Positions 1-36,079 of a DNA stretch of 36,079 nucleotides are shown in pieces; the first letter of the stretch is position 1; every line of letters starts with the position of its first letter. Source of the stretch: a virus; IMG/VR virus record IMGVR_UViG_3300009285_000036, positions 1 to 36,079 of that record. The stretch is one strand, 5' to 3'. The notes beneath the pieces were generated by a model. The model did no database searches. It was given only the letters and a program-made list of their open reading frames with translations, and was not told where the DNA came from. The position numbers were made by a program, and so were the translations under genes.

Positions 1-37
1 AAAAAGGGGCGTGGATACGGAGTAGCCGTAACGCCCC
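1..37 (-). terminator. Intrinsic terminator of the receiver gene
   Basis: GGGGCGT (6-12) pairs with ACGCCCC (31-37). An inner helix TACGG (16-20) pairs with CCGTA (26-30). Read on the minus strand the hairpin is followed by TTTTT (complement of 1-5). It starts 6 nt after the TAG stop at 44-46. Confidence 0.7.
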
Positions 38-77
38 ACGAACCTACCGACGAAGTGGATCACCTCCTTTCCTCTGC
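1..77. repeat. Terminal direct repeat, identical to 36003-36079. Most likely an assembly overlap from a circular or circularly permuted molecule.
   Basis: Base-by-base comparison shows all 77 nt identical at both ends of the window. Confidence 0.95.
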
Positions 78-442
78 CAGTCCAGCCGATGATCGAGAGC
101 GATCGGGACGATGTCCCTCATGAACGCGAGATCGTAGGGCTTCATCACGATGAAGACATCGGGCGGAAGACGATTCACGTGCTCCACGAGCGCGCACAGC
201 GCGATAATGGGCATGAGTGGAATCTCCTCTCGCACGAACTTCACGATCCGATAGCCCGACTGTCCTGGCAAGTCGATTGCCGTGATGAGAAGCTGGAAGT
301 TGTCGCGATGCCTAGGAGAGAGAAGTCGAATGGCGTCGTTGCCGTTGGACAGCGCCGTAACGGTGTGTCCCAGGTCGACGAGGCCTTTCGAAATCCGCAG
401 TCTGTCGGCTCTCGAATGAGCCACGAGAATCACTCTTGCCAT
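44..442 (-). CDS. Single-domain CheY-like response-regulator receiver protein with atypical active-site residues
   Basis: 132 aa ORF that aligns by eye to CheY along its length: RVILV beta1, LLITAIDLPGQSG, PIIALCA, IVMKPY with the conserved K-P. G+C is about 57 percent against about 35 percent in the flanks. Confidence 0.8.
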   Translation of the reverse strand: MARVILVAHSRADRLRISKGLVDLGHTVTALSNGNDAIRLLSPRHRDNFQLLITAIDLPGQSGYRIVKFVREEIPLMPIIALCALVEHVNRLPPDVFIVMKPYDLAFMRDIVPIALDHRLDWQRKGGDPLRR

Positions 443-533
443 CTTTCTTCTTTCCTTTCCGCTTGGGTTTGCGATGACTTGACTTCAGTCCGCACCTTCC
501 GCTTACTGGGATAGGTTTCCTCATTGTAATTTA

Positions 534-542
534 ATTATAACA
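534..542 (-). promoter_or_regulatory. Candidate extended -10 promoter (TGtTATAAT on the minus strand) for the receiver gene
   Basis: The reverse complement of 534-542 reads TGTTATAAT. It lies in the AT-rich phage sequence, about 90 nt upstream of the ATG at 442. Confidence 0.35.
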
Positions 543-555
543 CTATTTATAAATT

Positions 556-930
556 ATGAAAAATGTACCAGATGAATTATTGCCCACAGAAGAACAAGAA
601 CAGATCGCCTTAGTTGATTGGCTGGAATGGAACAAAATTAAATTTACCGCTATACCAAATTCAACTTACACAACAAGTTGGAATCAAAAAAGAAAGAATA
701 AAGCAATGGGTGTAAGATCGGGAATACCAGATATACTGTGTATAATTAAAGGTCTGCTGGTGTTCATAGAATTAAAAAGAAGAAAGGGGGGAAGTTTGAG
801 TAAAACTCAAAAAGAGTGGATAGAAGAATTAAATAAATGCTCTGGCGTTCTCGCTATAGAATGCAAGGGCGCAGATCACGCAATTGATTTATTAGAATCA
901 ATTCTAAAAAATAATAAACAATATGAATAA
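556..930 (+). CDS. VRR-NUC / PD-(D/E)xK nuclease
   Basis: 124 aa with GIPDILCI ... VFIELKRRKG, which gives the PD and ExK motifs. Size is typical of phage VRR-NUC proteins. Confidence 0.75.
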   Translation: MKNVPDELLPTEEQEQIALVDWLEWNKIKFTAIPNSTYTTSWNQKRKNKAMGVRSGIPDILCIIKGLLVFIELKRRKGGSLSKTQKEWIEELNKCSGVLAIECKGADHAIDLLESILKNNKQYE

Positions 931-1207
931 AAAAATCATCAAGATCGTGGTTTATGTAGTGGTTGGATTATTGATCCTCGGATCAGCAGGGTTCAATCTT
1001 TACATCCTCGGAGTAAATTATATCAACCGAATATCAATCAGCGGACAGCAAGCCGTAGTAGCGGCAATCTATAAGCAAATGAAAGAAACAGGATCGCTAA
1101 CCCTAACATTTGATAGAGAATCAATCACAATGATTGATAGTACCAAGTGTAATACTCAACCAGTTGTAACTCCCGCCCCAACGCCAACCCCGGCGCCAGC
1201 AGAATAA
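923..1207 (+). CDS. Membrane-anchored protein with a Pro/Thr-rich C-terminus
   Basis: 94 aa with an N-terminal hydrophobic helix (IVVYVVVGLLILGSAGF) and a TPAPTPTPAPAE tail. Its start overlaps the upstream stop. Confidence 0.6.
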   Translation: MNKKIIKIVVYVVVGLLILGSAGFNLYILGVNYINRISISGQQAVVAAIYKQMKETGSLTLTFDRESITMIDSTKCNTQPVVTPAPTPTPAPAE

Positions 1208-1210
1208 TTT

Positions 1211-1306
1211 ATGAGAGGAATAATGACTTTTATCGGGGGGTTGATAATTGGTTTAGCAATAGGTATGTGGTGGACACTTTTGACATTATGGGATAAATAT
1301 CTTTAA
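1211..1306 (+). CDS. Small hydrophobic protein (31 aa)
   Basis: MRGIMTFIGGLIIGLAIGMWWTLLTLWDKYL fills the gap between the two neighbouring genes exactly. It is below the ORF-track length cutoff. Confidence 0.4.
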   Translation: MRGIMTFIGGLIIGLAIGMWWTLLTLWDKYL

Positions 1307-1307
1307 T

Positions 1308-1649
1308 ATGCCACTGGAAGAAATCAAACCAAAAATCTACATATTTGTGTCTTCTGAATTTGGCGAATCAATAGACATAAAACTTCAACCTCACCTTATA
1401 AAAGCCTTTACGCCAAAACAAGCAATGTTTGGAGTGAATAATTTGTTAACCCAAAACAACCAAGTGAGAGGTGATATTATTTGTATTGGCGAGGATATGG
1501 AAGAAGAAGTAGTAAAAAAACTTGGACTGACAATGAAGTTAATCCAAGAAGAACCTAAACCAAAACCGCAAAACCCTGAACATCTTGCTCAATATTTGAG
1601 AGATACAGGGAAATGGATAGTGTATAAAAAGAAAACACGCCCCAATTGA
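1308..1649 (+). CDS. Hypothetical protein
   Basis: 113 aa ORF, tightly packed against its neighbours and followed by a terminator. Confidence 0.65.
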   Translation: MPLEEIKPKIYIFVSSEFGESIDIKLQPHLIKAFTPKQAMFGVNNLLTQNNQVRGDIICIGEDMEEEVVKKLGLTMKLIQEEPKPKPQNPEHLAQYLRDTGKWIVYKKKTRPN

Positions 1650-1663
1650 TGGGGCGGTTTTTT
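1638..1663. terminator. Bidirectional intrinsic terminator between convergent transcription units
   Basis: CGCCCC (1638-1643) pairs with GGGGCG (1651-1656). T-rich runs follow the hairpin on both strands. Confidence 0.7.
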
Positions 1664-1671
1664 ATCTTCTT

Positions 1672-1755
1672 TTAAAGTACTGAAAAAACAAGAACCGTGG
1701 CGAAAACTCCAACCATTATACCAAGACAAAATATAATTTTAATTTCGTGATCCAT
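1672..1755 (-). CDS. Possible 27-aa membrane peptide
   Basis: MDHEIKIIFCLGIMVGVFATVLVFSVL lies downstream of the 1624-aa gene. Support comes only from ORF and hydrophobicity. Confidence 0.3.
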   Translation of the reverse strand: MDHEIKIIFCLGIMVGVFATVLVFSVL

Positions 1756-1812
1756 TTTTTTATTTAAGTTTATATTTTTTTAGAATAATAGATAAGGACA
1801 TCTTTTAGAGCA

Positions 1813-4800
1813 TCAATCATATCCATATTTTTTAAGTAAGTTGCTCATAGTTTTGTTGGTGCGTTTAACCAAATCCTCATTCTTGTTTTTTTTGGCTTCT
1901 TTGATCATCTTAGAAAGTAAGTTATAGAGTTTGTAAAATCCATCTATTTTGTATAACTTCAGTAGATCCTCCCGTGTAGCAAGGTCGGAATGCTTCTTTT
2001 GCGATAGGTATTCATAATCATTAAAAAACTCATTGACTTGTCGGCGCGGGAAATCTTTATCTTTCAACATGATATCAGAAAGAATGGGTAAGTCTTCAAG
2101 TTGACTTTTATTTGCGAAATCAAACTGTCTGCCAAATCCTCCAGAATAGGTATTGAGCAAATAATCAAGCTGAACAGGGGATAGATGGATACCAATTTTA
2201 TCAAGACCTTTGGATGTTTCAATCGCAAAACGAGATGTATAGTCTTTTTTTCGTTCAGTTGGATAGAGATATTGCATTCCTTCCGATTCAATCGGTATGC
2301 CCATATAATTTCGGTTAGACGCAACATCAATAATCGGACCGAAAGCCGAAGGTGTAGGATCAGGAACTTGAGATTTTGCGATTTCAAGCAATCCTTTTAG
2401 TGCTTCATCATCCCCCATTGCATTATCTAGCATGGCTTGTGGAGCGGCCATAAACAACATTCCTAGTTCAAAAGGAATGGGCAAACGAAACACATTATCA
2501 CCAATTTCAAAATAAAGATTATTGTATTTATATGCAGGAGGAAGATTTTTGTACCACTCCTTATCTTTGTTTTTATACCATGAACCGATTGCGATTAGGG
2601 TAAGCCATAAAAGCCCCTTAACCGTTGTTTGAATCGGCTTGTTTCTCATGGTTCGGTAAAGTTTTTCTGGGCCACGGATAGCTACGTTGAAAAACGCTGA
2701 TATTTCATTTAATTGTTTCGCCCATTTTCCCGACTTTGTGAAATTTACGGTAACATCTTGAGCATCAAGAAACGATTGCACAAAAATATCTTCTTCCGAC
2801 CAAGAGGGGTTATTCTTTTTGTGCATATCATAGTTTTTTTCAAGCTCGGAACTGCGCGGCCCCATTTCAGTAACAGACAGAATATCACGCAGTGCGTTTA
2901 TGGGATGTTTTACAATCTTTAATACTTTGCCCTTTACTCCTAATTTTGCCTGAAGTACCTCATCATAGGTATCCATTGTTGCTGATCTGTCGTATCCAAT
3001 TTGTCCCGATAACGCACCACCAAGTTTCTTGAATCTCCATGTCAACTCCCCGGGCTTTGTAGAAACACTTTGGTACATTCCTAGAACTGGATCAAAAATA
3101 GTAGCAGTTTTTCTTTCAGAGAAAACTACATAACTCAAAGCATCGCGGAAAGGATTGCGGGCCAGACCAAATGAAACTTTAAGTCCCGTTGCACCCAAAC
3201 GAAGCATACGAGAAAATGGAGCAAGAAGTTTGGCCACCGGCCCCAACTTCAATGGATCAATACCCTTAAAAGATTCATATAAATCAGGATGTATTTCATA
3301 GAATTTTTGTTCACCATTTCTCCAAATAGAGATGATATTTTCTTTTCCTCTGTATGCAAAATCTTGTGTAAACACGGTAAGAAAATCATCAAGATTGGCA
3401 GTATCACCACCCACTTCTTCAACATACCCTTTTATTTTTTCTGCACTAAAGGTTGTCGCTTTCATCGGCGCGGGAACTTCAGTAATGAACCCACCCAACC
3501 CTTCGTTATAGGAAAGATCAGCAAAGAGTTTGGCCACTCTTAATTTTTGTGCCTTTCCAATCAGCTCTCTTGTTTGCGCGATCATTGCTTCAATAGGATT
3601 GATAATCGGTCTTGCACTCCCTTTAATTTTTTGTACCCCTACGCCAGTATCAACAAATCCACCACCACCTTTAATCACGCCGACAGAATCTAAGAACGCT
3701 CGTTTGAATGGTAAATAGATAGGATTGAGATCGCGCATGAGTTGAGTTGCTTTTGTGTCTAGTCCTCCAGCGCGCACCAACCAACCCAAGAGATGATTAG
3801 ACCAATCAGTTAATCCTTTGGCCTGCTCGTCCCACCCCCTATCTTTGTATTTTTCAACAACAAACTTTGCATCATCAATATCAAAACCACTTTCAATGTT
3901 TCGCTCGGCAAGGTTCAACGCGCGTTTTGAAACTGCATAAGCAATAAATTGCCGTATTTCTTTATTGGAGATTGGCTTGAGAATTTCAACCATGCTCGGC
4001 CCCAAGACACCCCCATACTCATCAATCGCCGCATCCATGATAAAAGTCCTTGCAATTGATCCAGCTTTGGATTTGGAATACTCCATCATCTTTGCAGGAT
4101 TTTCCGTAGGTTTCAACCTTCTTCCTATAACCGCTTCAATCCCCCTAACAATCTTCTGTGGAGTATAAAACTCATCATTAAACTTTTCTTGTATAAACTT
4201 AAAAGCCAGCTTTAGTTTTGGTACTATCCCCTTAATCTGGGAGTACTCGCCTTTCCAATCAATATGTTGGATGATACGATTTTCCGCGCCTTGTTTATGC
4301 CAAATATCAAAACGTTCTTGCAGACCGGCAAGTTGATTTTTCAACTTTGGGTTTTTCTGTAAAAACTCATTGAAGAAAGCATGAAACACCGGCGCGCGAC
4401 TTTGTGCTTCGTCAGTAGTCAATCTGTATCTCATGTATTCTGCAAAACCCTCGGTTGTTCTGCGTTTGGTTTGGTCGTAATCCAAGTCAGCCAGTTCTTT
4501 CTGAAAACCCAACGATCCCTTTCTCCATCCCTCCAGATGAGATTTTTTCAGGGTAGTTAAATCTATGTGATGAGAAAGTTCGTGTGCAAACACAGAAAAC
4601 TCTCCCCACTTTTCCATGCGGATAATCTGTTTTTGTGGATAATACATTCCTGCCATTTTCCATTTATGAGTGACTTTTGATTTAATCGGAACGTTAAAAG
4701 TTTTTTCCGCCCAAGATAGAATTTCAGTTTTATTGATTGTTTCCTTTACTTCCGGTTCTTGTGCCATTTTCACACTCCATTTTTTTGCCGTAAGTCCGTG

Positions 4801-6687
4801 AGCTTTATTCAAGTCCGTATCTGATCCATCTATCAATGATTTTTCTTTTGAGGGTTTCTTAATCGTTCTGATTTGAGCATCAAGGTCTGTTACATCTTGT
4901 TGCCATTTTCTTGCATCTGTCTGCGTTTTTTTAATCTCTCTTTGAGTGCTTTCAATATCTGTAATTTGCTCTCTAGATAAATTAAGTTTTTCGTTGTCAT
5001 ATTCTTGTTGTGTCTTAGTGATTAAGTCGTCAATTTGTTGTGATTTTTTCTCAAACTCCGCAAACGGATCTTCTAAGTTCAAATTTAATTCAGTCACAAT
5101 TTCATCTTTTGCGTTTGCTAACGAATCGATTTTTTCTTGAATTAAATTATAAAGTCTAATTTCAGAAACCTTTAATGGCAATGTGCCAGACATTATGTGT
5201 TCAAGAGTTGGATCAATAATTTTTTTCAATCTTAAATCTTGTGGCAACCAATCTGGAAATGAAGATTTTACACCAATAATCCCCATTGTTTCACCCTCAA
5301 GTGTTCTAATAAGTTGTCGTTTTCCAGCTTCAGCTAGTTTCAAACTATCTAAAAGTTCACTTTCAATTTTACCTAACATCTCAGTTTCAGGCGTATCAAA
5401 AGTAGTGGTTAATTGAATTTGTTTTGTGATAGTTGGTTTTTCCAGTTTGGGTTCTTCCTTTATTTTAATTTTCTCACGGATTTTTCCAAAATCAATTTTT
5501 GGGGTAGGAGTTATTTCAGGTAGTTTTGCATCTGGTGTTTGAGGAATAATCTCACCGGGTTTCCCTTCTTGTAATAACGCGCGAGGAGTTAATTTTGGCT
5601 TTCCAAGTTGTGAGGTACTGATAACTTCTGATGTTGGCTTGACCTTAAATAATGATTTAATTTTGCTCCAATATGGTTTATCAGTCATTGTGACCACTTC
5701 TGTGGCAGGTACTTCAATACTCAAACCATTCTCAAACGCATTCTTATATTGTTGACCAGTTAGACCCAAAGACTTAACTAATTCCATTTCTTGCAAACTG
5801 ATCTTTTCTCCTGTCTGAAAAATTGATTTTACCTTGTTGCCTTCAATATAAAGTTTTTCTGGAAATTTATATTCGGCAAAAAAATCTTTTGTTAATTTTA
5901 CTTTTAATTCCGGAGCTTTTTTATAAGCACCGTTAAGTAAAACACCCGTACCAAAAAATTGAAGAATATCTACTACATCTCGACTTAGTTGATTTGTCGC
6001 GTCTGGTAATAATTCAGACAGTCCTTTTGATTGTAATAACTTAAAAGGTTCTTTTTTGGCTTTTGAAACACCATAACTTATCGCTTCAGTAATGGCTACA
6101 AAACCACCAACCCCAAGAATAGTAGTTACTGGATTTGTCATTAAACCTGCCACAACCGGGAGTGTAATCATCACATCTAAAACCTCTCTTGTTGTTGGTA
6201 TTTGTCTTATTCCTAATTCTTTTGTAATATCGGAAAGATGTTTATCAACGAAAGACTGATCTAAACCAGTTTGCTTTGTTAATTGAACTACCGCCCAATC
6301 TCGTGCCTGCTGTTCTTCATCACTAACAAAAAATGGTTTCCCGTAGATTTGTTCTTTAATCAATGGAGTAGAAAATGCTGTTTTTACTTCTCTGATTGTT
6401 GGAATTTTCTTGGTAATTATTGATTTTGCGAAAAGCTTTACTGGTTCGGCAACTGCCTGAAATACTTTTTGAAGCGTTGAAGATTTATTTACCGCTCTTA
6501 ATACTTGTTCCTGTTTAGCGATTGGAGTTTCAATTTTTGGTAATGGTTGGACAGTCGGCTTTGTTTTTTGAATTTGAACAATATTAAGATTTTTTCTAAT
6601 CTTATCAAAATCAATTTTAGTTTTTTGTAATGTTGTACCACCACCAGAATTAAGATTATCTCTAATTTTATTGAAGTCAATCGCCAT
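1813..6687 (-). CDS. Giant virion protein (1624 aa) with an HExxH zincin motif. Candidate internal core or ejection polyvalent protein.
   Basis: HELSH is encoded at 4570-4584. The IDFxKIR motif occurs three times (aa 3, 25 and 398). Hydrophobic helices lie near aa 175-205 and a coiled-coil segment at aa 520-620. It is the last gene of the late block, the position held by gp16 in T7. Confidence 0.85.
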   Translation of the reverse strand: MAIDFNKIRDNLNSGGGTTLQKTKIDFDKIRKNLNIVQIQKTKPTVQPLPKIETPIAKQEQVLRAVNKSSTLQKVFQAVAEPVKLFAKSIITKKIPTIREVKTAFSTPLIKEQIYGKPFFVSDEEQQARDWAVVQLTKQTGLDQSFVDKHLSDITKELGIRQIPTTREVLDVMITLPVVAGLMTNPVTTILGVGGFVAITEAISYGVSKAKKEPFKLLQSKGLSELLPDATNQLSRDVVDILQFFGTGVLLNGAYKKAPELKVKLTKDFFAEYKFPEKLYIEGNKVKSIFQTGEKISLQEMELVKSLGLTGQQYKNAFENGLSIEVPATEVVTMTDKPYWSKIKSLFKVKPTSEVISTSQLGKPKLTPRALLQEGKPGEIIPQTPDAKLPEITPTPKIDFGKIREKIKIKEEPKLEKPTITKQIQLTTTFDTPETEMLGKIESELLDSLKLAEAGKRQLIRTLEGETMGIIGVKSSFPDWLPQDLRLKKIIDPTLEHIMSGTLPLKVSEIRLYNLIQEKIDSLANAKDEIVTELNLNLEDPFAEFEKKSQQIDDLITKTQQEYDNEKLNLSREQITDIESTQREIKKTQTDARKWQQDVTDLDAQIRTIKKPSKEKSLIDGSDTDLNKAHGLTAKKWSVKMAQEPEVKETINKTEILSWAEKTFNVPIKSKVTHKWKMAGMYYPQKQIIRMEKWGEFSVFAHELSHHIDLTTLKKSHLEGWRKGSLGFQKELADLDYDQTKRRTTEGFAEYMRYRLTTDEAQSRAPVFHAFFNEFLQKNPKLKNQLAGLQERFDIWHKQGAENRIIQHIDWKGEYSQIKGIVPKLKLAFKFIQEKFNDEFYTPQKIVRGIEAVIGRRLKPTENPAKMMEYSKSKAGSIARTFIMDAAIDEYGGVLGPSMVEILKPISNKEIRQFIAYAVSKRALNLAERNIESGFDIDDAKFVVEKYKDRGWDEQAKGLTDWSNHLLGWLVRAGGLDTKATQLMRDLNPIYLPFKRAFLDSVGVIKGGGGFVDTGVGVQKIKGSARPIINPIEAMIAQTRELIGKAQKLRVAKLFADLSYNEGLGGFITEVPAPMKATTFSAEKIKGYVEEVGGDTANLDDFLTVFTQDFAYRGKENIISIWRNGEQKFYEIHPDLYESFKGIDPLKLGPVAKLLAPFSRMLRLGATGLKVSFGLARNPFRDALSYVVFSERKTATIFDPVLGMYQSVSTKPGELTWRFKKLGGALSGQIGYDRSATMDTYDEVLQAKLGVKGKVLKIVKHPINALRDILSVTEMGPRSSELEKNYDMHKKNNPSWSEEDIFVQSFLDAQDVTVNFTKSGKWAKQLNEISAFFNVAIRGPEKLYRTMRNKPIQTTVKGLLWLTLIAIGSWYKNKDKEWYKNLPPAYKYNNLYFEIGDNVFRLPIPFELGMLFMAAPQAMLDNAMGDDEALKGLLEIAKSQVPDPTPSAFGPIIDVASNRNYMGIPIESEGMQYLYPTERKKDYTSRFAIETSKGLDKIGIHLSPVQLDYLLNTYSGGFGRQFDFANKSQLEDLPILSDIMLKDKDFPRRQVNEFFNDYEYLSQKKHSDLATREDLLKLYKIDGFYKLYNLLSKMIKEAKKNKNEDLVKRTNKTMSNLLKKYGYD

Positions 6688-6692
6688 ATTTG

Positions 6693-8732
6693 TTATTTTT
6701 GAAGCATCTGTAATAATAATTGATCCGATCCCGTACTTCCTTTAAATTCTTGATAAGCACCGGGTTTTGCCCAACCCCACGCTAGACCTTCTTCATCAAT
6801 ACCACCACCAAGTAATGAATCCAAGATATCATCTGGAACACCCCATTTAGATTTTATTGTATTATAAACTGATCCCCACGAAGTTCCTGCTCTTAAATCA
6901 TCTTGACCTTTAGAGATATCTTCATACATTGCTTTTTCATCGGCAGAAATAGAACTCTTAACCGTACTACTACCGCTCGGCGCTCTCACCTGTTCTTGAT
7001 AAATCTTGCTAGTTTTCAATTTAGCTTGAGCCACAGCAAGAGAATCACTTGGCAATATATTAGCGTCAGGATATTTACCCATAATATCTTTGACATATTC
7101 CTTGTCAGCAATCTCACCCAAGAAAGGAGTGATTTTTGAAATAGCGTCTTCGTAACTGTCTGTGATCGTAACTTTGCCCTTGATAATCGCTTCAGGATAA
7201 TTCAACATCAATTCCAAAATCTTATCCTTGTTTGCTTCCATTTGGGTAATCTCATTTTGAAGCATTATCATTTGATTATTCACTGCTTCTTTTTCATCAG
7301 CTTTCAAAGAGATAACTTTATTTTCACTCAAACTTAATAATGTCTTGTAAGCGTCAATTTGTTCAGAACGATCAGCGTTAATTGCGCTCATCATAAAATT
7401 GATTGAATCCTTGGCATTGGCAATATCACCCTGAATAATCTCTGCCGTGCCAGTAAGGGTGGCAATCCGAGCCAGTCCTCGACTTTCCACTGCTTTTTGT
7501 CTACGACCAAGAATAGAAAGCGGCGCAATCCGTTCGCCCTCTTGAGTAATACCTAAATTCATCTTTTCTTTTTCAGCATTGATGTCAGTCAAAATAGTTT
7601 TCAAATTATCCTGTTTTATTTTCAATTCGTATTCTTCCATTAACGCTTTGGCTTTGTCTTGAGAATAAGTGCTAGTCAAGTTTGCTTCAAGTCCACTTTT
7701 CAACGATTCACTTTCAGCTTCAACGGTCTTGCGTGCCGTTTCCGCTGCTGTTTGTTGTGCTTGATAAATACTCATTATGGTTTTTTCCAAACCAGACATT
7801 GAAGAATTGACGAAATTGTTAATTGCTGCATTGGTTGTGGCATCAGAAGAATAGTTACCAACAAAAGTAGAAGCAGCCGTTGGTTTCTCTTCACCGCTAA
7901 CAGCAGTGCCATCAATCTTTGATGGTGTTTCAGGCAGGTTCTTAGCAATAGCTTCTTTGGCTTGTTCGGCAGTTACCATTCCAAGTTCCCCCGACTGATA
8001 TGCCCCTATAGCGCCAGATTTTGCGATTAGAGCGGCTTCAGCGGGTGTTTTAGCCTGTCCACTATATAAAGGTGTTGTCGCTTGATTTAACACCATTCCT
8101 TGTCTTTGTAATAACATCACAGCATTTTCTCTGTTTGCATCAGGATAACGAGATAAAATACTAGAAATATCTTGTTCAGTAATATCTTGACCTTGACGGA
8201 CAATATCAGCAACGACTGGATTAACTGGTCTTGGAGTTTGAGTAACAGTCTGAGCGGTTTGTCCTTGTGTAGCACCAGCAGGTGCAGGAAGACCCACTTG
8301 TACTCCCCCAACATCTCCACCAACATAATTACCTTGTGCATCTTGAACTAAATTAAGTTCTGGGGCAGTATATTCAACTCCTTGATCTCGTAATGAATTT
8401 GCAAAACCAGTAAAAAAACTCCTATCAGCATCAGCTTGTTGTTTGTGTAGTTTTGCACCAGTAGAATTAACATCTTCTGGATTTCCACTAGCTATAATAT
8501 TTTGATAATTCTCACTAGCATTAGTTAAACTTCTTGCCCTATCTCTCAGTACTTGATTTGCTTCTTGTATAAATAAATTAAAAACTCTATCAGTACCAAA
8601 CTGTAAATAATTTGAACCAGCATTTCCTCCCCCACCCAAAGCATTGCTGTATGCTTGTGCGATAACCCTTTTTTCTTCTGGTGTTTTGAATTGATTGGCA
8701 CTTAAAGTAGTGCCAGATAATTTTAGTGCCAT
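6693..8732 (-). CDS. Large virion protein (679 aa). Candidate internal core protein.
   Basis: Long ORF with a coiled-coil C-terminal half. The call rests on its position next to the giant protein. Confidence 0.8.
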   Translation of the reverse strand: MALKLSGTTLSANQFKTPEEKRVIAQAYSNALGGGGNAGSNYLQFGTDRVFNLFIQEANQVLRDRARSLTNASENYQNIIASGNPEDVNSTGAKLHKQQADADRSFFTGFANSLRDQGVEYTAPELNLVQDAQGNYVGGDVGGVQVGLPAPAGATQGQTAQTVTQTPRPVNPVVADIVRQGQDITEQDISSILSRYPDANRENAVMLLQRQGMVLNQATTPLYSGQAKTPAEAALIAKSGAIGAYQSGELGMVTAEQAKEAIAKNLPETPSKIDGTAVSGEEKPTAASTFVGNYSSDATTNAAINNFVNSSMSGLEKTIMSIYQAQQTAAETARKTVEAESESLKSGLEANLTSTYSQDKAKALMEEYELKIKQDNLKTILTDINAEKEKMNLGITQEGERIAPLSILGRRQKAVESRGLARIATLTGTAEIIQGDIANAKDSINFMMSAINADRSEQIDAYKTLLSLSENKVISLKADEKEAVNNQMIMLQNEITQMEANKDKILELMLNYPEAIIKGKVTITDSYEDAISKITPFLGEIADKEYVKDIMGKYPDANILPSDSLAVAQAKLKTSKIYQEQVRAPSGSSTVKSSISADEKAMYEDISKGQDDLRAGTSWGSVYNTIKSKWGVPDDILDSLLGGGIDEEGLAWGWAKPGAYQEFKGSTGSDQLLLQMLQK

Positions 8733-8733
8733 A

Positions 8734-9042
8734 TTAAATTAAGTTACATAAATCCTTGATTGCGTTGATTAAATTATTTTGCGTGGGATTTTCTTCTAAA
8801 AGTTTTTTGATATCCTTAACTTTATCTTTTTTAATTTGTTTTTCTTTCTCATTTTTAGCTAAAGGATTTTCTTCCAAGACTAATTTTTTCTGCCAGTGTG
8901 CGATATAATTTTCTTTTAATTGTTGAAGTTCTTCTGGAGTGGGATCGTAAGAAATAATATAAAACTTGTCTTCGTCAAAACTACCAAGATTTTCACCTCG
9001 CGCGATAATTTGATTATTCCATTTTCGTACTGCAAATTTCAT
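8734..9042 (-). CDS. Hypothetical protein (102 aa)
   Basis: ORF whose start overlaps the stop of the upstream tail-fibre gene by 4 nt (ATGA). Confidence 0.65.
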   Translation of the reverse strand: MKFAVRKWNNQIIARGENLGSFDEDKFYIISYDPTPEELQQLKENYIAHWQKKLVLEENPLAKNEKEKQIKKDKVKDIKKLLEENPTQNNLINAIKDLCNLI

Positions 9043-11396
9043 ACTTGTATATCAATACTTAATCCAGCGTTGCCGTTTGAACCGTCAGTAGCTGTTGTTC
9101 CATAACCATTTCCATGAGTGCCACCAGTTCCGCCACTAACATCAACACTTCCGCTGTCAGTTAATGAAGAATAAACTCGGATCACAATACCACCTGAACC
9201 GGCTCCCCCACCACCCCCACCACCACCCCATGTTGGAGTTGTTCCCTCACCCTGACCACCATTTCCACCATTACCACCTTTTGCTAAAATAGTTCCAGTG
9301 CTAACAATAATACGAGCAAAAATTGTAATTATTCCACCCCCAGCACCTGATCCACCTCCACCACCACCACCTTGTAAAGTACCACCATTCCCATCACCCC
9401 CAGCACCTGATCCACCTCCAGCCGAAGATTTCAAATAATCTCCACTTGGCAAAGTATCAAAAAGTAAATAAGCAGTAATACCATTTCGAGGTTCATTAAA
9501 AACAGTCCCAGTTTTACTTCCTGCTGTTCCTCCTGCATTAGCACTAGCACCACCACCATTACCACCAGCGACTCCAGCAGACCCTAAAGACTTAGCAACA
9601 TCAGTGCCATTATTTCCATCATCCCCACCACTACCACCCGAAGTTCCGCCATTACCTCCAGCCTTTCCTGCCATCCCACCAACCACCGAACCAGAAGCTG
9701 TAGCAGCCCCAGCCGAACCACCAGCCCCTCCTCCAGCTGATCCTACCGCTCCATTTCCACCATTCCCACCACTACAGTTAATTGAATCAGCACTTGAATA
9801 AGTCAAAGTTCCACTAACAAAAATCCTATATCCATTCGTAAAAATTGTATCACCCGAAGTTATGGTTAAATTAGTATAAAAAACATCAGCTGTTAAAGTT
9901 TCATCGCCTGCCGTAGTATGGGCACCGTCTGAACCATCACCAAACCACGATTCGTTGGATAAAGATGAATTATTAACAACAGCGTCAGTAAGAACATTGT
10001 TTTGAACCTGTACCCAAGCCGCGCCACTCCAGCGATAAGGTCTGTTGGCGTCATCACTGTCAAGCCATAAATCGCCCGTTTCACTAGCAGTCGGAGCAGT
10101 TGTTTGAATATAAGTCAAGATTTTAGTGTCAGCAGTTCCTTGGGCCGTGGCGGCGTTTGAGAGAGCCGTGCCGATTGCGTCGTCTTGTATCTCTACCCAA
10201 ACCGCTCCGCTATACCTGTAAATCTTGTTATCATCTGAATCTATCCAATAGTCCCCCGTAACCATTCCTGTACCCGGGGTGGTAGTATTAAAAAATAATT
10301 GATAAATACCACTAGGGATGTTTGTAAGGTTTGTTGTCCAGTCAGCACCAACCGTAGCGTTATCCGCCGCCTTACCAGCTCCAAAGATTTTAGCCCAATC
10401 AGCCACATCAAACTCTGCCGCCACCCAAGCGCTACCACTCCAACGATAAGGTTTGTTGTTGTCATCAGTATCGAACCAGATATCACCGACAGCCTCGGCG
10501 GTTGGAGCAGTGGCAACAAAAAATGAAACGATTTTGCCGTCTGCAGTTGATTGAGCATTATTAGCGGCCGTAAGAGCCGAAGCAATAGCCCCGTCTTGAA
10601 TATCAATCCAAGCCGTACCAGACCACCTATAAAGATTATAGCCATCATCAGAATCAGCCCATAAGTCGCCAGTAGCTTCTGCGGTTGGTGCGGTAGTTTG
10701 AACGAATGTAATAATTTTACCGTCTGCCGTGGCCTGTGCCGTTGCCGCGTTAGCAATGGCAGTCGCAATACCTGAATCTTGAACACTAACCCAAGCACTT
10801 CCAGACCACCTATACATTTTGTTGCCATCATCTGAGTCCAACCATAAATCGCCTGTTTCTGACGCTGTGGGCGCGCTGGCTTGCGTAAAGGTAACAATCT
10901 TCGTGTTAGCGGTAGTTTGCGCGTTAAACGCGTCTGTGAGAGCTTGAGCGATGTCATTGTCCTGTACCTCTACCCAAGCGGAGCCGGAATACCGATAAAT
11001 CATATTATCATCGCTGTCTATCCAATAATCATTCGCGCTCATTCCACTAGCAGGCGCGGTAGCTTGATAATAAATAACTGCCCGGCCAGTATAGGCGGTA
11101 TCTCGAATTGAAGTCCAAACCAGTAAATCACTAGCACGGTAAGGGTGATTACTGTCGTTTGTGTCAATCCAAATATCGCCCTTTTTGTAATCATCAGTTG
11201 GCGCGTCATTTTGATAGAAAGTCTGTCTGCGTAAAGCATTGACTTCTGGTGTTGCTCCTCCAGTGTCAGCCATTTGACTAAAATCAAGTATCTCTGGCAT
11301 TAAACTAGAAACAGTAGGGATGACAAAAACATCCTTTGAAAGTAAATCTGGTAGGGTTTTGTTTTCAATATCAGGCATAGTTACTTTTGAAGCCAA
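9039..11396 (-). CDS. Tail fibre / receptor-binding protein with tandem repeats and a glycine-rich C-terminal domain
   Basis: Seven copies of the G-D-x-W-x-D-S-D-D ... Y-R-W-S-G-x-A-W motif, the central ones about 61 aa apart (roughly 9990-11220). The C-terminal 250 aa are rich in GGNGG and GGSG runs. Confidence 0.85.
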   Translation of the reverse strand: MASKVTMPDIENKTLPDLLSKDVFVIPTVSSLMPEILDFSQMADTGGATPEVNALRRQTFYQNDAPTDDYKKGDIWIDTNDSNHPYRASDLLVWTSIRDTAYTGRAVIYYQATAPASGMSANDYWIDSDDNMIYRYSGSAWVEVQDNDIAQALTDAFNAQTTANTKIVTFTQASAPTASETGDLWLDSDDGNKMYRWSGSAWVSVQDSGIATAIANAATAQATADGKIITFVQTTAPTAEATGDLWADSDDGYNLYRWSGTAWIDIQDGAIASALTAANNAQSTADGKIVSFFVATAPTAEAVGDIWFDTDDNNKPYRWSGSAWVAAEFDVADWAKIFGAGKAADNATVGADWTTNLTNIPSGIYQLFFNTTTPGTGMVTGDYWIDSDDNKIYRYSGAVWVEIQDDAIGTALSNAATAQGTADTKILTYIQTTAPTASETGDLWLDSDDANRPYRWSGAAWVQVQNNVLTDAVVNNSSLSNESWFGDGSDGAHTTAGDETLTADVFYTNLTITSGDTIFTNGYRIFVSGTLTYSSADSINCSGGNGGNGAVGSAGGGAGGSAGAATASGSVVGGMAGKAGGNGGTSGGSGGDDGNNGTDVAKSLGSAGVAGGNGGGASANAGGTAGSKTGTVFNEPRNGITAYLLFDTLPSGDYLKSSAGGGSGAGGDGNGGTLQGGGGGGGSGAGGGIITIFARIIVSTGTILAKGGNGGNGGQGEGTTPTWGGGGGGGGAGSGGIVIRVYSSLTDSGSVDVSGGTGGTHGNGYGTTATDGSNGNAGLSIDIQV

Positions 11397-33916: not shown

Positions 33917-34090
33917 ATGAACCAAAAAACTGAAATCACAATCCCAATCATTTGGCTAAAAGGATTAAAAGAATATGCTGAAAGGGTAAAAGAAACAGAA
34001 AATATGGGGAATCTTAATCACGAAACAGCAATCGCTTCTTTACTCGGATATTTAGAAAGTTTAGAAATGTTTTATGACCAAACAAACTAA
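33917..34090 (+). CDS. Small hypothetical protein (57 aa)
   Basis: ORF with the AAAACTATG start context. It overlaps the next gene by 17 nt. Confidence 0.45.
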   Translation: MNQKTEITIPIIWLKGLKEYAERVKETENMGNLNHETAIASLLGYLESLEMFYDQTN

Positions 34091-34535
34091 ATCTGAACTT
34101 CTTTGCTTCTCAATTCTCATCATCTTTGTTGTTTGCGCGTTGGCTTATTTATTACATATCACGAAAGCAAAGGCTTATGAAAAAGAAATATACAAGTACG
34201 ATCCGTGCGGACTTATCACAGTCCAGTGTGATAAAGAGCCGACTGGCAGAATTGTCCAAACAACGCTCACAGCTTACAGCTCTGAAAAAAATCAAACGGA
34301 CAGCACGCCATTTATTACGGCAAATGGACAAAGAGTTAAGCGAGGTTTCATTGCTAATAACTGCCTGCCATTCGAAACAAGTGTCGCTATTGGAAATACG
34401 CTGTTTACAATCAATGACCGACTTAATGACCGCTATGGTTGCGATGTATTCGACTTGTGGGTCGGAGATAAACAAACTGCGCTCAACTTCGGTAAGCAAG
34501 AAGCTGAAATAATCGTGTTTCAAAACTGGGATTGA
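34074..34535 (+). CDS. Exported 3D-domain (MltA/RlpA-like) peptidoglycan hydrolase
   Basis: N-terminal signal or anchor (LLCFSILIIFVVCALAYLL), then TAYSSEKNQTDSTPFITANG ... LPFETSV ... NDRLNDRYGCDVFDLWV, which matches the 3D-domain pattern. Confidence 0.65.
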   Translation: MTKQTKSELLCFSILIIFVVCALAYLLHITKAKAYEKEIYKYDPCGLITVQCDKEPTGRIVQTTLTAYSSEKNQTDSTPFITANGQRVKRGFIANNCLPFETSVAIGNTLFTINDRLNDRYGCDVFDLWVGDKQTALNFGKQEAEIIVFQNWD

Positions 34536-34561
34536 TTGAGGTAAAAATAACACAGTAATAT

Positions 34562-35263
34562 ATGAGTAGTAAAGACAAAATCATATTAGATTTATGTGGT
34601 GGCACTGCCAGTTGGAGTCAACCATATAAAGACGCTGGGTACGATGTTCGTCTGATTACTTTACCCGAAAATGATGTTTGTGATTATGTTCCACCGGAAA
34701 ATGTTTATGGTATTCTCGCCGCGCCACCCTGTACAATGTTCAGTTTTGCCAGAACTAACGCTAAAAAACCAAGAGATTTACAAGAGGGCATGAAGTGTGT
34801 CCGTGCTTGTTTAAATATAATTTGGTCAATAATGGAAGTAGAACAAAATACAACAAAAAAAACTTTACCACTTCAATTTTGGGCATTAGAAAATCCATAT
34901 TATGGATTTCTTAAAAAGTTTCTTGGCAAACCAGCGTTTATTTTTGACCCGTGGGAATTTGGTGACGGCTATCAAAAAAGAACAGCTTTGTGGGGAAACT
35001 TCAACGAACCAAAGAAAAATCCTGTTCCATTGACCGATAAAATGAAAGAATTAGCAAAAACAAACAGTTATCTACATACAATGAAAACGGGAACGAACCG
35101 AGGAACACAGCCGTCAATGTGGAATAAAAAGAATTTGAAAAAATTTGATATGCCGGCAAGTAAAGATATTCGTTTAGAAGCGTTTGGTGTTTGGGACAGA
35201 CAAGTAAGACGAAGTATTACCCCCCAAGGATTTGCTAAAGCATTTTTTGAAGCAAATAATTAA
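34562..35263 (+). CDS. Divergent compact C5-methyltransferase-like protein (233 aa)
   Basis: DLCGGTASW (motif I-like), AAPPCTMFS (PC motif IV), WALENP (motif VI-like) and RRSITPQGFAKAF near the C-terminus. Confidence 0.55.
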   Translation: MSSKDKIILDLCGGTASWSQPYKDAGYDVRLITLPENDVCDYVPPENVYGILAAPPCTMFSFARTNAKKPRDLQEGMKCVRACLNIIWSIMEVEQNTTKKTLPLQFWALENPYYGFLKKFLGKPAFIFDPWEFGDGYQKRTALWGNFNEPKKNPVPLTDKMKELAKTNSYLHTMKTGTNRGTQPSMWNKKNLKKFDMPASKDIRLEAFGVWDRQVRRSITPQGFAKAFFEANN

Positions 35264-35280
35264 CATTAGTCTAATCAATA

Positions 35281-35304
35281 TTAAAATAAGTCAATAAATA
35301 TGGA
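35281..35304 (+). repeat. 24-nt perfect direct repeat, copy 1 (TTAAAATAAGTCAATAAATATGGA)
   Basis: Identical to 35759-35782. It includes the ATG of the 35300 gene. Confidence 0.9.
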
Positions 35305-35767
35305 AAAAGAACTTATAATCAAAATAGATTTGGAAAAAATTACTGAAGATATTCTCGAAAAAGAAACATACTCTTCTGGTGTTTCAACTTCGGTCATTAT
35401 TCAAAATAGAGTAAAAGATGAAATAAAAAGAAATATACAAAATAGTATTGTTGATGAAATAAAAAGAAATATCAATATAGAAGAATTAAAAGAAAAATCT
35501 TACTCATCTGAATATTTGAAAAGAACTGCGAATGATATACTTCAAAAAGAACTTTCTGGTTTAGTTAAAAACTATACCGATGAATGGATTAAAAAACAAA
35601 TGCGTTATGTTGTTGAGGATGCGGTAAGAAAAAATGTAGAAGAGTTTGTTCTTCCCAAATTACAAAAAATGATTTCAAACCTTATAATTGTAAATCAGGA
35701 AAATATAGATGAAGAATTACAAGAATTACAGAAAGGTTATGAAGAACAAATTAAAGAATTAAAATAA
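35300..35767 (+). CDS. Hypothetical K/E-rich helical protein (155 aa)
   Basis: ORF bracketed by the 24-nt repeats. The internal motif DEIKRNI occurs twice. Confidence 0.65.
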   Translation: MEKELIIKIDLEKITEDILEKETYSSGVSTSVIIQNRVKDEIKRNIQNSIVDEIKRNINIEELKEKSYSSEYLKRTANDILQKELSGLVKNYTDEWIKKQMRYVVEDAVRKNVEEFVLPKLQKMISNLIIVNQENIDEELQELQKGYEEQIKELK

Positions 35768-35782
35768 GTCAATAAATATGGA
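35759..35782 (+). repeat. 24-nt perfect direct repeat, copy 2
   Basis: Identical to 35281-35304. Its ATG (35778) opens only a 13-codon ORF, which is followed by a 7-bp hairpin at 35795-35816. Confidence 0.9.
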
Positions 35783-35830
35783 CGACAAAATAATCTTTCT
35801 TCGGCAAGCAAGAAAGTGAAGTAATAATTT

Positions 35831-36004
35831 ATGTCTAAACAGTCAGATAAAGAAAAACGAAAAATACTTCTTCAGGCATTAAAAGTATTGAAACAAGAAA
35901 AGGTAAATAAGGGATGTAAGTCATACGGTTTTGCTTGTCCGCAATGTGAGTTTAGAAGGATGTATGAAATGTTTGAAAGTTATGTTAAGTTTTGGAGAGA
36001 TTAA
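35831..36004 (+). CDS. Small Cys-containing protein (57 aa)
   Basis: CKSYGFACPQC. The stop codon runs into the terminal repeat and the terminator hairpin. Confidence 0.5.
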   Translation: MSKQSDKEKRKILLQALKVLKQEKVNKGCKSYGFACPQCEFRRMYEMFESYVKFWRD

Positions 36005-36079
36005 AAAGGGGCGTGGATACGGAGTAGCCGTAACGCCCCACGAACCTACCGACGAAGTGGATCACCTCCTTTCCTCTGC
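36003..36079. repeat. Second copy of the 77-nt terminal repeat. It duplicates the terminator and the 3' end of the receiver gene.
   Basis: Identical to 1-77. Confidence 0.95.

Follow-up and report, generated by a model that had tools for sequence, protein, structure and literature searches.

A stand-alone aspartate-less receiver domain in a GC-rich island of an uncultivated groundwater phage

The first 515 nucleotides of IMG/VR virus record IMGVR_UViG_3300009285_000036 form an island of GC-rich DNA in a low-GC genome. We analyzed the whole record, a stretch of 36,079 nt (hereafter the window), which is a contig of an uncultivated tailed phage from an aquifer (groundwater). The island consists of one credible gene on the minus strand together with a GC-rich leader and a terminator (hairpin plus U tract) of its own, the layout that had been claimed in an earlier examination made without database searches (hereafter the sequence-only reading). 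The gene encodes a stand-alone protein of the receiver-domain superfamily in which most residues of the phosphotransfer site, including the acceptor aspartate, are replaced. Features of the island and of the DNA directly upstream of its gene are as follows.

1–37, minus strand: predicted intrinsic terminator of the receiver gene, with the hairpin at 37–6 and the U tract at 5–1
44–442, minus strand: stand-alone pseudo-receiver (aspartate-less receiver) of 132 aa, with the stop codon at 44–46 and key residues A8, H9, A55, C83, K101, and P102
443–515, minus strand: GC-rich 5' leader of 73 nt, with a weak purine-rich Shine-Dalgarno (SD) sequence, AAGGA, within 443–460, before the ATG
534–562, minus strand: candidate sigma-70-like promoter, with TTTTCA (562–557), a spacer of 17 nt, and TGtTATAAT (542–534)

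The island is real and compositionally foreign. Positions 6–515 have 56.9% G+C versus 38.9% in other 510-nt windows of the contig (standard deviation 4.9, maximum 49.2; z = 3.6), and no 400-nt window outside the island exceeds 51%. The hand counts of the sequence-only reading (136 of 240 nt in 121–360 and 42 of 120 nt in 601–720) are exact, and the abrupt edges it described are borne out, with jumps at 1 and at 510/511. In 30-nt windows, G+C rises from 30% (35970–35999) to 53% (1–30) at the left edge and falls from 60% (481–510) to 20% (511–540) at the right edge. Positions 1–77 and 36003–36079 are exactly identical; the contig is therefore circular (36,002 bp), and the junction 36002/1 is internal to it. 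The left edge, which had been placed at about 36004/1, is sharp as described, but its correct position is this junction. Within the receiver open reading frame (ORF), G+C at codon positions one, two, and three is 0.64, 0.38, and 0.69; the third-position value compares with 0.31 ± 0.06 (maximum 0.415) in 30 phage genes. Codon adaptation to phage genes is 0.46 versus 0.61–0.80.

Two other ORFs at the locus, 89–514 (plus) and 312–524 (minus), were rejected as shadows; neither has a Pfam match, and both show the codon-position G+C of antisense or off-frame sequence. The 70-aa product of the latter is a low-complexity basic string. On most public contigs, gene callers chose one of these shadows, either the 70-aa ORF (312–524, minus) or the 141-aa ORF (89–514, plus), and the correct 132-aa call was made on two short contigs only (loci L019–L027). 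The receiver protein cluster therefore looks much rarer than the locus is. Gene callers tuned to an AT-rich phage miss GC-rich cargo, and such cargo is thus probably under-counted in viromes. A transposon origin is not supported because, by inspection, the ends of the island have neither terminal inverted repeats nor a target-site duplication.

The predicted terminator has the hairpin GGGGCGU UACGG cuacu CCGUA ucc ACGCCCC followed by UUUUU, with a folding energy of −22.6 kcal/mol (z = −3.0; none of 200 shuffles was equally stable). It is predicted to work for the minus strand only, and it forms the precise left boundary of the island as well as the breakpoint of recombination with a variant contig, L022, described below. 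At the other end of the gene, the leader appears to have been transferred together with the coding sequence. Significant structure was not found in the leader RNA (z = 0.07) and the leader has no Rfam match; with no tRNA either, a reading of the locus as structured RNA was rejected.

The purine tract GGAAAGGAAAGAAGAAAG is located directly 5' of the ATG of the receiver gene and the −10-like box TGTTATAAT at 542–534 on the minus strand, each where the sequence-only reading had put it. That reading had also set the tract against a lack of SD sites in phage genes. Phage genes are essentially without SD sequences (the energy of the anti-SD duplex averages −0.45 kcal/mol over 39 phage gene starts, 0 of 39 reaching −6), but the AAGGA of the island is itself weak (−5.6 kcal/mol) and is equaled by two phage genes. 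The −10-like box is part of the sole promoter-like site, which is in AT-rich phage DNA; its −35 element overlaps the start codon of the neighboring VRR-NUC nuclease gene, and the predicted leader is ∼85 nt long. Judging from this match, the receiver gene is probably driven from a promoter in phage DNA. The motif TGNTATAAT occurs 5 times in the window versus 2.2 expected, and matches to a sigma-70-like extended −10 are near chance in AT-rich DNA (6 found, 4.7 expected). The receiver gene itself is antisense between plus-strand early genes (early operon).

Similarity in sequence and in predicted fold places the protein in the receiver superfamily. Pfam Response_reg (PF00072), the model that the sequence-only reading had named for its receiver assignment, matches with E = 1.3e-6; the score of 29.0 bits is just below the gathering cut-off of 30.2, and the protein is assigned to the superfamily by its fold and by further searches. 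A HMMER scan of 1.84 billion representative proteins yielded 1,572 matches at E ≤ 1e-3, the best with E = 7e-15. Many NCBIfam response-regulator models match weakly, with no equivalog near its cut-off; the best full-length alignment is to CpdR (residues 1–105, E = 3.6e-7, 30 bits versus a cut-off of 180 bits). In phmmer searches of the PDB, the receivers of FleR and NtrC match with E = 2.6e-7, and CheY structures are weaker (E = 3.8e-4). AlphaFold2, given an alignment of 23 sequences, predicted the structure with a predicted local distance difference test (pLDDT) value of 93 and a predicted template modeling score of 0.86. The order of the predicted elements is canonical for a (beta-alpha)5 fold (b1-a1-b2-a2-b3-a3-b4-a4-b5-a5), with a very short alpha-4 (residues 86–89) and a long alpha-5. 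Almost all of the top 50 Foldseek matches in the PDB are receiver domains (template modeling scores of 0.72–0.82); RssB is among them, as it is among the sequence matches.

Receiver chemistry depends on a small set of residues, whose columns were identified in three agreeing alignments (23 sequences, matches in the PDB, and 280 homologous domains).

Acidic pair binding Mg2+ (CheY D12/D13): A8 and H9 here; E/D and D in homologues (D in 170 of ∼205 aligned)
Phospho-acceptor Asp at the end of beta-3 (CheY D57): A55 here; Asp in 264 of 280 aligned domains
Thr/Ser at the end of beta-4 (CheY T87): C83 here; T or S in 226 of 246 aligned domains
Lys and cis-Pro at the end of beta-5 (CheY K109-P110): K101-P102, kept; Lys invariant in one homologue alignment

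Four of the five signature residues are thus replaced, with K101-P102 alone kept. The protein does have a D57 of its own, at D+2, two residues after the acceptor column. It lies in a 'TAxDLPG' motif that very few homologues share; one that does is a Chloroflexota protein, in its second receiver (36% identity over 82 residues). A pseudo-receiver is a protein recognized computationally as a receiver but without the residues needed for phosphotransfer (PMC12632262; PMC4395418). With substitutions at the acidic pair, at the acceptor Asp, and at the Thr/Ser position, the protein is a stand-alone pseudo-receiver, or aspartate-less receiver (ALR), and not a working CheY. From established receiver chemistry, we infer that Mg2+ binding and phosphoryl acceptance would be impossible. 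Any interference with signaling therefore cannot go via phosphotransfer. The label 'CheY-like receiver' given in the sequence-only reading is accordingly right as to superfamily but not as to function. Nothing links the protein to chemotaxis, which that reading had named as a possible target of interference. The match to CheY is weaker than those to FleR and NtrC.

Pseudo-receivers occur widely, and their action does not depend on phosphorylation (PMC4395418; PMC12632262). The phage protein is like bacterial pseudo-receivers and ALRs in that the acceptor Asp and other active-site residues are gone while the K109-Pro pair and the (beta-alpha)5 core are kept. As for them, constitutive action or inputs other than phosphorylation would be expected. 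It is unlike them in being a phage-encoded stand-alone domain in an island of foreign composition and an orphan with ≤32% identity to other proteins. It also differs in its very short alpha-4 and in its acceptor site, where Ala is followed by an Asp two positions later.

Resemblance to CpdR and RssB raises the alternative that the protein regulates the program of the phage itself, as a protease adaptor in the manner of unphosphorylated CpdR or RssB or as the partner of a phage protein; host signaling would then not be its target. CpdR gives the best full-length NCBIfam alignment, RssB is found by sequence and by fold, and the gene diverges from the promoter region of VRR-NUC within the early region. 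These scores, however, represent generic receiver similarity far under the family cut-offs, and foreign composition speaks against an old, integrated phage function. We regard this alternative as highly improbable.

The sequence-only reading had left open that the island was a chimeric assembly. Three features flank or close the junctions in question.

34562–36002, plus strand: swappable accessory cassette left of the island, with a DNA methyltransferase (233 aa), a 155-aa ORF, and a 57-aa ORF
36003–36079, no strand: 77-mer overlap from the assembler, joining the ends into a circle, rather than a biological repeat; contigs of other assemblies run straight through
556–930, plus strand: VRR-NUC nuclease (Pfam PF08774, 34.2 bits), the right flank, which accompanies the island in both variants

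Other runs of a groundwater project provided two short MEGAHIT contigs that encode the exact 132-aa protein, and both of these contigs span both junctions with 100% identity to the circularized window. Look-ups with flanking proteins led to 13 and 6 contigs (ENA, Logan, and JGI; assembled by MEGAHIT, SPAdes, and other pipelines). Across MEGAHIT, SPAdes, Logan, and JGI assemblies from at least seven samples, the sequence over both junctions is identical. A mis-joining of high-GC bacterial DNA into a low-GC phage contig could be argued from the position of the contig ends, which fall at the left junction, exactly at the island edge, and from several other contigs that break at window positions 1, 2, 23, or 127. 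But, at 100% identity, the right junction is spanned by every look-up contig and the left one by seven of them, which stem from different runs and four assembly pipelines. Moreover, a bacterial contig with the receiver gene is absent from the collections searched, and the breaks are explained by a true branch of the assembly graph. Such a mis-join has a vanishingly small probability, and recurrence of both junctions in many independent assemblies answers the concern; the island is not a chimera.

The branch is documented by contig L022, which is 98.7% identical to window positions 34089–34561 and 99.5% identical to 1–1645, with the homology resuming exactly at position 1, the left edge of the island. 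In place of 34562–36002, it carries HTH_3, DUF6948, 115-aa, and 104-aa ORFs (L022 1452–3349). Because L022 shares the island but has a different left flank, the assembly graph branches at the left edge and contigs break or start there. In both variants, the island is set in low-GC phage DNA. The receiver ORF is intact in L022; of the two substitutions there, one is synonymous and the other is the missense change T27P, and 6 nt are inserted in frame at the C-terminus. It is intact and identical in more than 10 samples.

The swapped cassette is bounded by a start codon at 34562 on the left and by the terminator of the island on the right. Within it, an exact 25-nt direct repeat, ATTAAAATAAGTCAATAAATATGGA, is present at 35280–35304 and 35758–35782, and a start codon ends each copy. 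The first copy opens the 155-aa ORF, a gene for which no relatives were found, and the second opens an ORF of 13 codons only, the end of which resembles the end of the 115-aa ORF of L022 (25-nt match, 35804–35828). The ATTAAAATAAGTCAATAAATATGGA copies look like recombination linkers or remnants.

The source of the island is less easily traced. Judged by its sequence, the protein is an orphan: among representatives of ∼15 billion proteins, the best non-self match has 32% identity (E = 7e-15). The top matches are scattered over taxa (Mucilaginibacter, Chloroflexota), and therefore no donor is assignable. No relatives of the receiver emerged when IMG/VR and JGI metagenome contigs were searched by pattern in six frames, and there was no exact match to a 34-mer of the island in IMG/VR or to a 40-mer in JGI metagenome contigs, collections that do not contain the window itself. 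A tblastn search against GenBank phages returned no true phage record, only bacterial NtrC/OmpR in mislabeled records. The DNA of window positions 1–8000 had zero matches to 50,697 GenBank phages in near and distant searches. Donor-like composition and the lack of a detectable donor form a combination that is unexplained.

The insert is in every contig of this phage lineage, and the next relatives are distant (63% identity for VRR-NUC and 53% for the large terminase, TerL, in IMG/VR). VRR-NUC homologues with 49–63% identity on long contigs are in non-syntenic neighborhoods, and upstream of the gene in 19 distant VRR-NUC contigs, where neighboring genes are likewise non-syntenic, neither a receiver gene nor a GC island was found. 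TerL relatives in GTDB genomes have ≤38% identity, are found in low-GC Kapaibacterium metagenome-assembled genomes (MAGs) among others, and come with no other shared genes. A weak lead is a host that does not use SD sequences: the 39 phage starts are A/T-rich upstream with no SD pairing, and the sole genomic relatives of the terminase (≤38%) are in low-GC (34%) Kapaibacterium MAGs and an unclassified MAG. Phages with a 61%-identical VRR-NUC (L004 6000–7000 and L005 ∼1660) have a stretch of ∼53% G+C in a 36% background. This stretch is ∼1.3 kb downstream of VRR-NUC, encodes small Cys-rich ORFs resembling zinc ribbons, and may be a compositional islet.

The island is a well-documented moron-like acquisition. 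As with phage morons, of which HK97 gene 15 is an example (definition in PMC3594210), it looks like an addition between phage genes, differs in G+C, and has its own predicted terminator, a promoter candidate, and an adjoining mosaic junction. In contrast to classical morons, the candidate promoter is in phage and not island DNA, and no closely related phage without the insert was found. No integrase, repressor, histidine kinase, or histidine phosphotransfer (HPt) protein was detected by Pfam and PHROGs in any ORF of the window. With neither integrase nor repressor, expression from a prophage, the classical setting of morons, is not indicated, and the phage appears lytic. The sequence-only reading had called the cargo recently captured; its composition is consistent with this, but there is neither a donor above 32% identity nor a related phage with an empty site.

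On balance, we lean toward the view that the island is a genuine foreign moron-like insert whose pseudo-receiver acts free of phosphorylation, by binding a host partner. The receiver fold is present without phosphorylation chemistry and no kinase was detected in the phage, and thus stoichiometric binding to a host partner would be the most likely action. During infection, the protein would act through the protein–protein contacts of a receiver fold, most likely by docking non-productively onto the dimerization and histidine phosphotransfer (DHp) domain of a host histidine kinase, onto an HPt domain, or onto another partner that binds receivers. Docking would mute or lock one host two-component pathway. 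What the analysis establishes is the composition, the junctions, the ORF, the fold, and the missing catalytic residues, whereas expression of the protein, its partner, and its benefit to the phage are deduced.

Several points weigh against this view. A passenger in decay and without function would likewise be expected to have lost these four catalytic residues. The unusually short alpha-4 implies that the usual alpha4-beta5-alpha5 output surface is remodeled. The candidate promoter is a match to consensus, and a sigma-70-like consensus may not be that of the host. Variation among copies amounts to two substitutions and one indel, too little for a test of purifying selection. No donor closer than 32% identity was found among the ∼15 billion proteins, and, because the phage lineage is isolated, no syntenic empty site was found either; insertion and capture are therefore deduced from composition alone.

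The first of these points suggests an inert passenger, that is, a receiver remnant picked up by illegitimate recombination that is decaying and functionless, yet unpurged. Besides the loss of four of the five catalytic residues, the poor match of its codon usage to the phage, its status as an orphan gene without a family, and its Pfam score under the gathering cut-off are consistent with this explanation. However, the ORF is intact and identical in more than 10 samples and intact in L022, where the sole indel leaves the reading frame unchanged; its terminator and start context have also been kept. The confident fold prediction (pLDDT 93) speaks against random decay, and small phage genomes usually shed useless DNA fast. 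We consider an inert passenger fairly unlikely.

For the binding of host kinases by a phage protein, there is a parallel in PIT4: this early phage protein targets the histidine-kinase domains of several host sensors (PMC10714779). We propose that the pseudo-receiver may be like PIT4 in being a small phage protein that hampers host two-component systems by direct contact with kinases; the likeness would be one of mechanism. Receiver-fold annotations also exist in phage and giant-virus proteomes. Foldseek searches against BFVD matched proteins of Myoviridae sp., Alteromonas phage PT11-V22, and uncultured Caudovirales (E = 5e-8 to 5e-6), and PHROG 731, 5982, and 20458 matched with E ∼1e-7. These viral proteins differ in having 15–22% identity and in being mostly longer response regulators or hybrid kinases, and none is characterized. 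A search of the literature by phrase found no paper describing a phage-encoded receiver or response regulator. Still, with viral receivers already annotated (BFVD, PHROG) and kinase binding described for PIT4 (PMC10714779), the idea is less unprecedented than the sequence-only reading held when it stated that no such phage function was known to it.

Conflict between phage and bacterium provides a second parallel. In Detocs (bioRxiv 10.1101/2023.01.24.525353), a kinase works with a receiver-effector and with DtcB, a receiver that stands alone and serves as a 'buffer'. Like DtcB, which acts on a kinase-receiver relay in phage–bacterium conflict, the phage protein is a single receiver with no output domain. 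The function of DtcB depends on its receiving Asp, mutation of which makes Detocs toxic (bioRxiv 10.1101/2023.01.24.525353), whereas Ala replaces that residue here. The phage protein might nevertheless occupy the kinase of a phosphorelay immunity system, of the Detocs type or similar, such that the effector response regulator is never activated. The composition of Detocs fits such a role, and the island adjoins a swappable cassette with a DNA methyltransferase, a typical counter-defense neighborhood. But a phosphate sink like DtcB needs the acceptor Asp, absent here. Nor was there a match to any PADLOC defense model, although whether that release includes Detocs models is not established. An anti-defense role of this kind is very doubtful. 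The published Detocs paper reportedly describes phage homologues of DtcB that inhibit Detocs, which is not used as evidence here.

In a broader form, the captured, phosphorylation-dead receiver would be a decoy that jams a host kinase relay, possibly that of a defensive or envelope-stress system, and would belong to a pool of decoys circulating among phages. We rate this as distinctly unlikely. If it were true, donor-like composition together with the lack of a donor would point to such a pool, and the protein would be the first phage-encoded pseudo-receiver with a counter-signaling or anti-defense role.

Pseudo-receivers and morons are already known; new here is a stand-alone, aspartate-less orphan receiver that is carried by a phage as a compositional island. 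If the protein is functional in the way we lean toward, phages can recruit a receiver fold stripped of its chemistry against bacterial two-component signaling. This would extend PIT4, the one characterized phage protein that binds histidine kinases, and would provide a small, tractable example of pseudo-receivers, a common but poorly understood class.

The remainder of the window is recognizably that of a phage. The large terminase is present (PHROG 38, E = 8e-106), as are a major head protein, an SU10-type adaptor, a depolymerase-like tail protein, two DNA methyltransferases, and one VRR-NUC nuclease (Pfam, PHROGs). A minus-strand gene at 1813–6687, which takes up 13% of the genome, encodes a 1,624-aa protein with an LPD38 'large polyvalent protein' domain (Pfam E = 3e-31; PHROG 9854). 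Between it and the convergent gene 1308–1649 (plus), a perfect GC-rich hairpin, CGCCCCAATTGATGGGGCG, at 1638–1656 is flanked by T runs on both strands and resembles a bidirectional terminator; terminators of the phage itself are thus also GC-rich. The second most GC-rich part of the genome, at up to 51%, is 9039–11396. It encodes a 785-aa protein rich in Gly repeats, probably a collagen-like fiber. Cytosine is scarce on its coding strand and abundant on the plus strand; GC skew falls to −0.44, and CCACC-type repeats are numerous.

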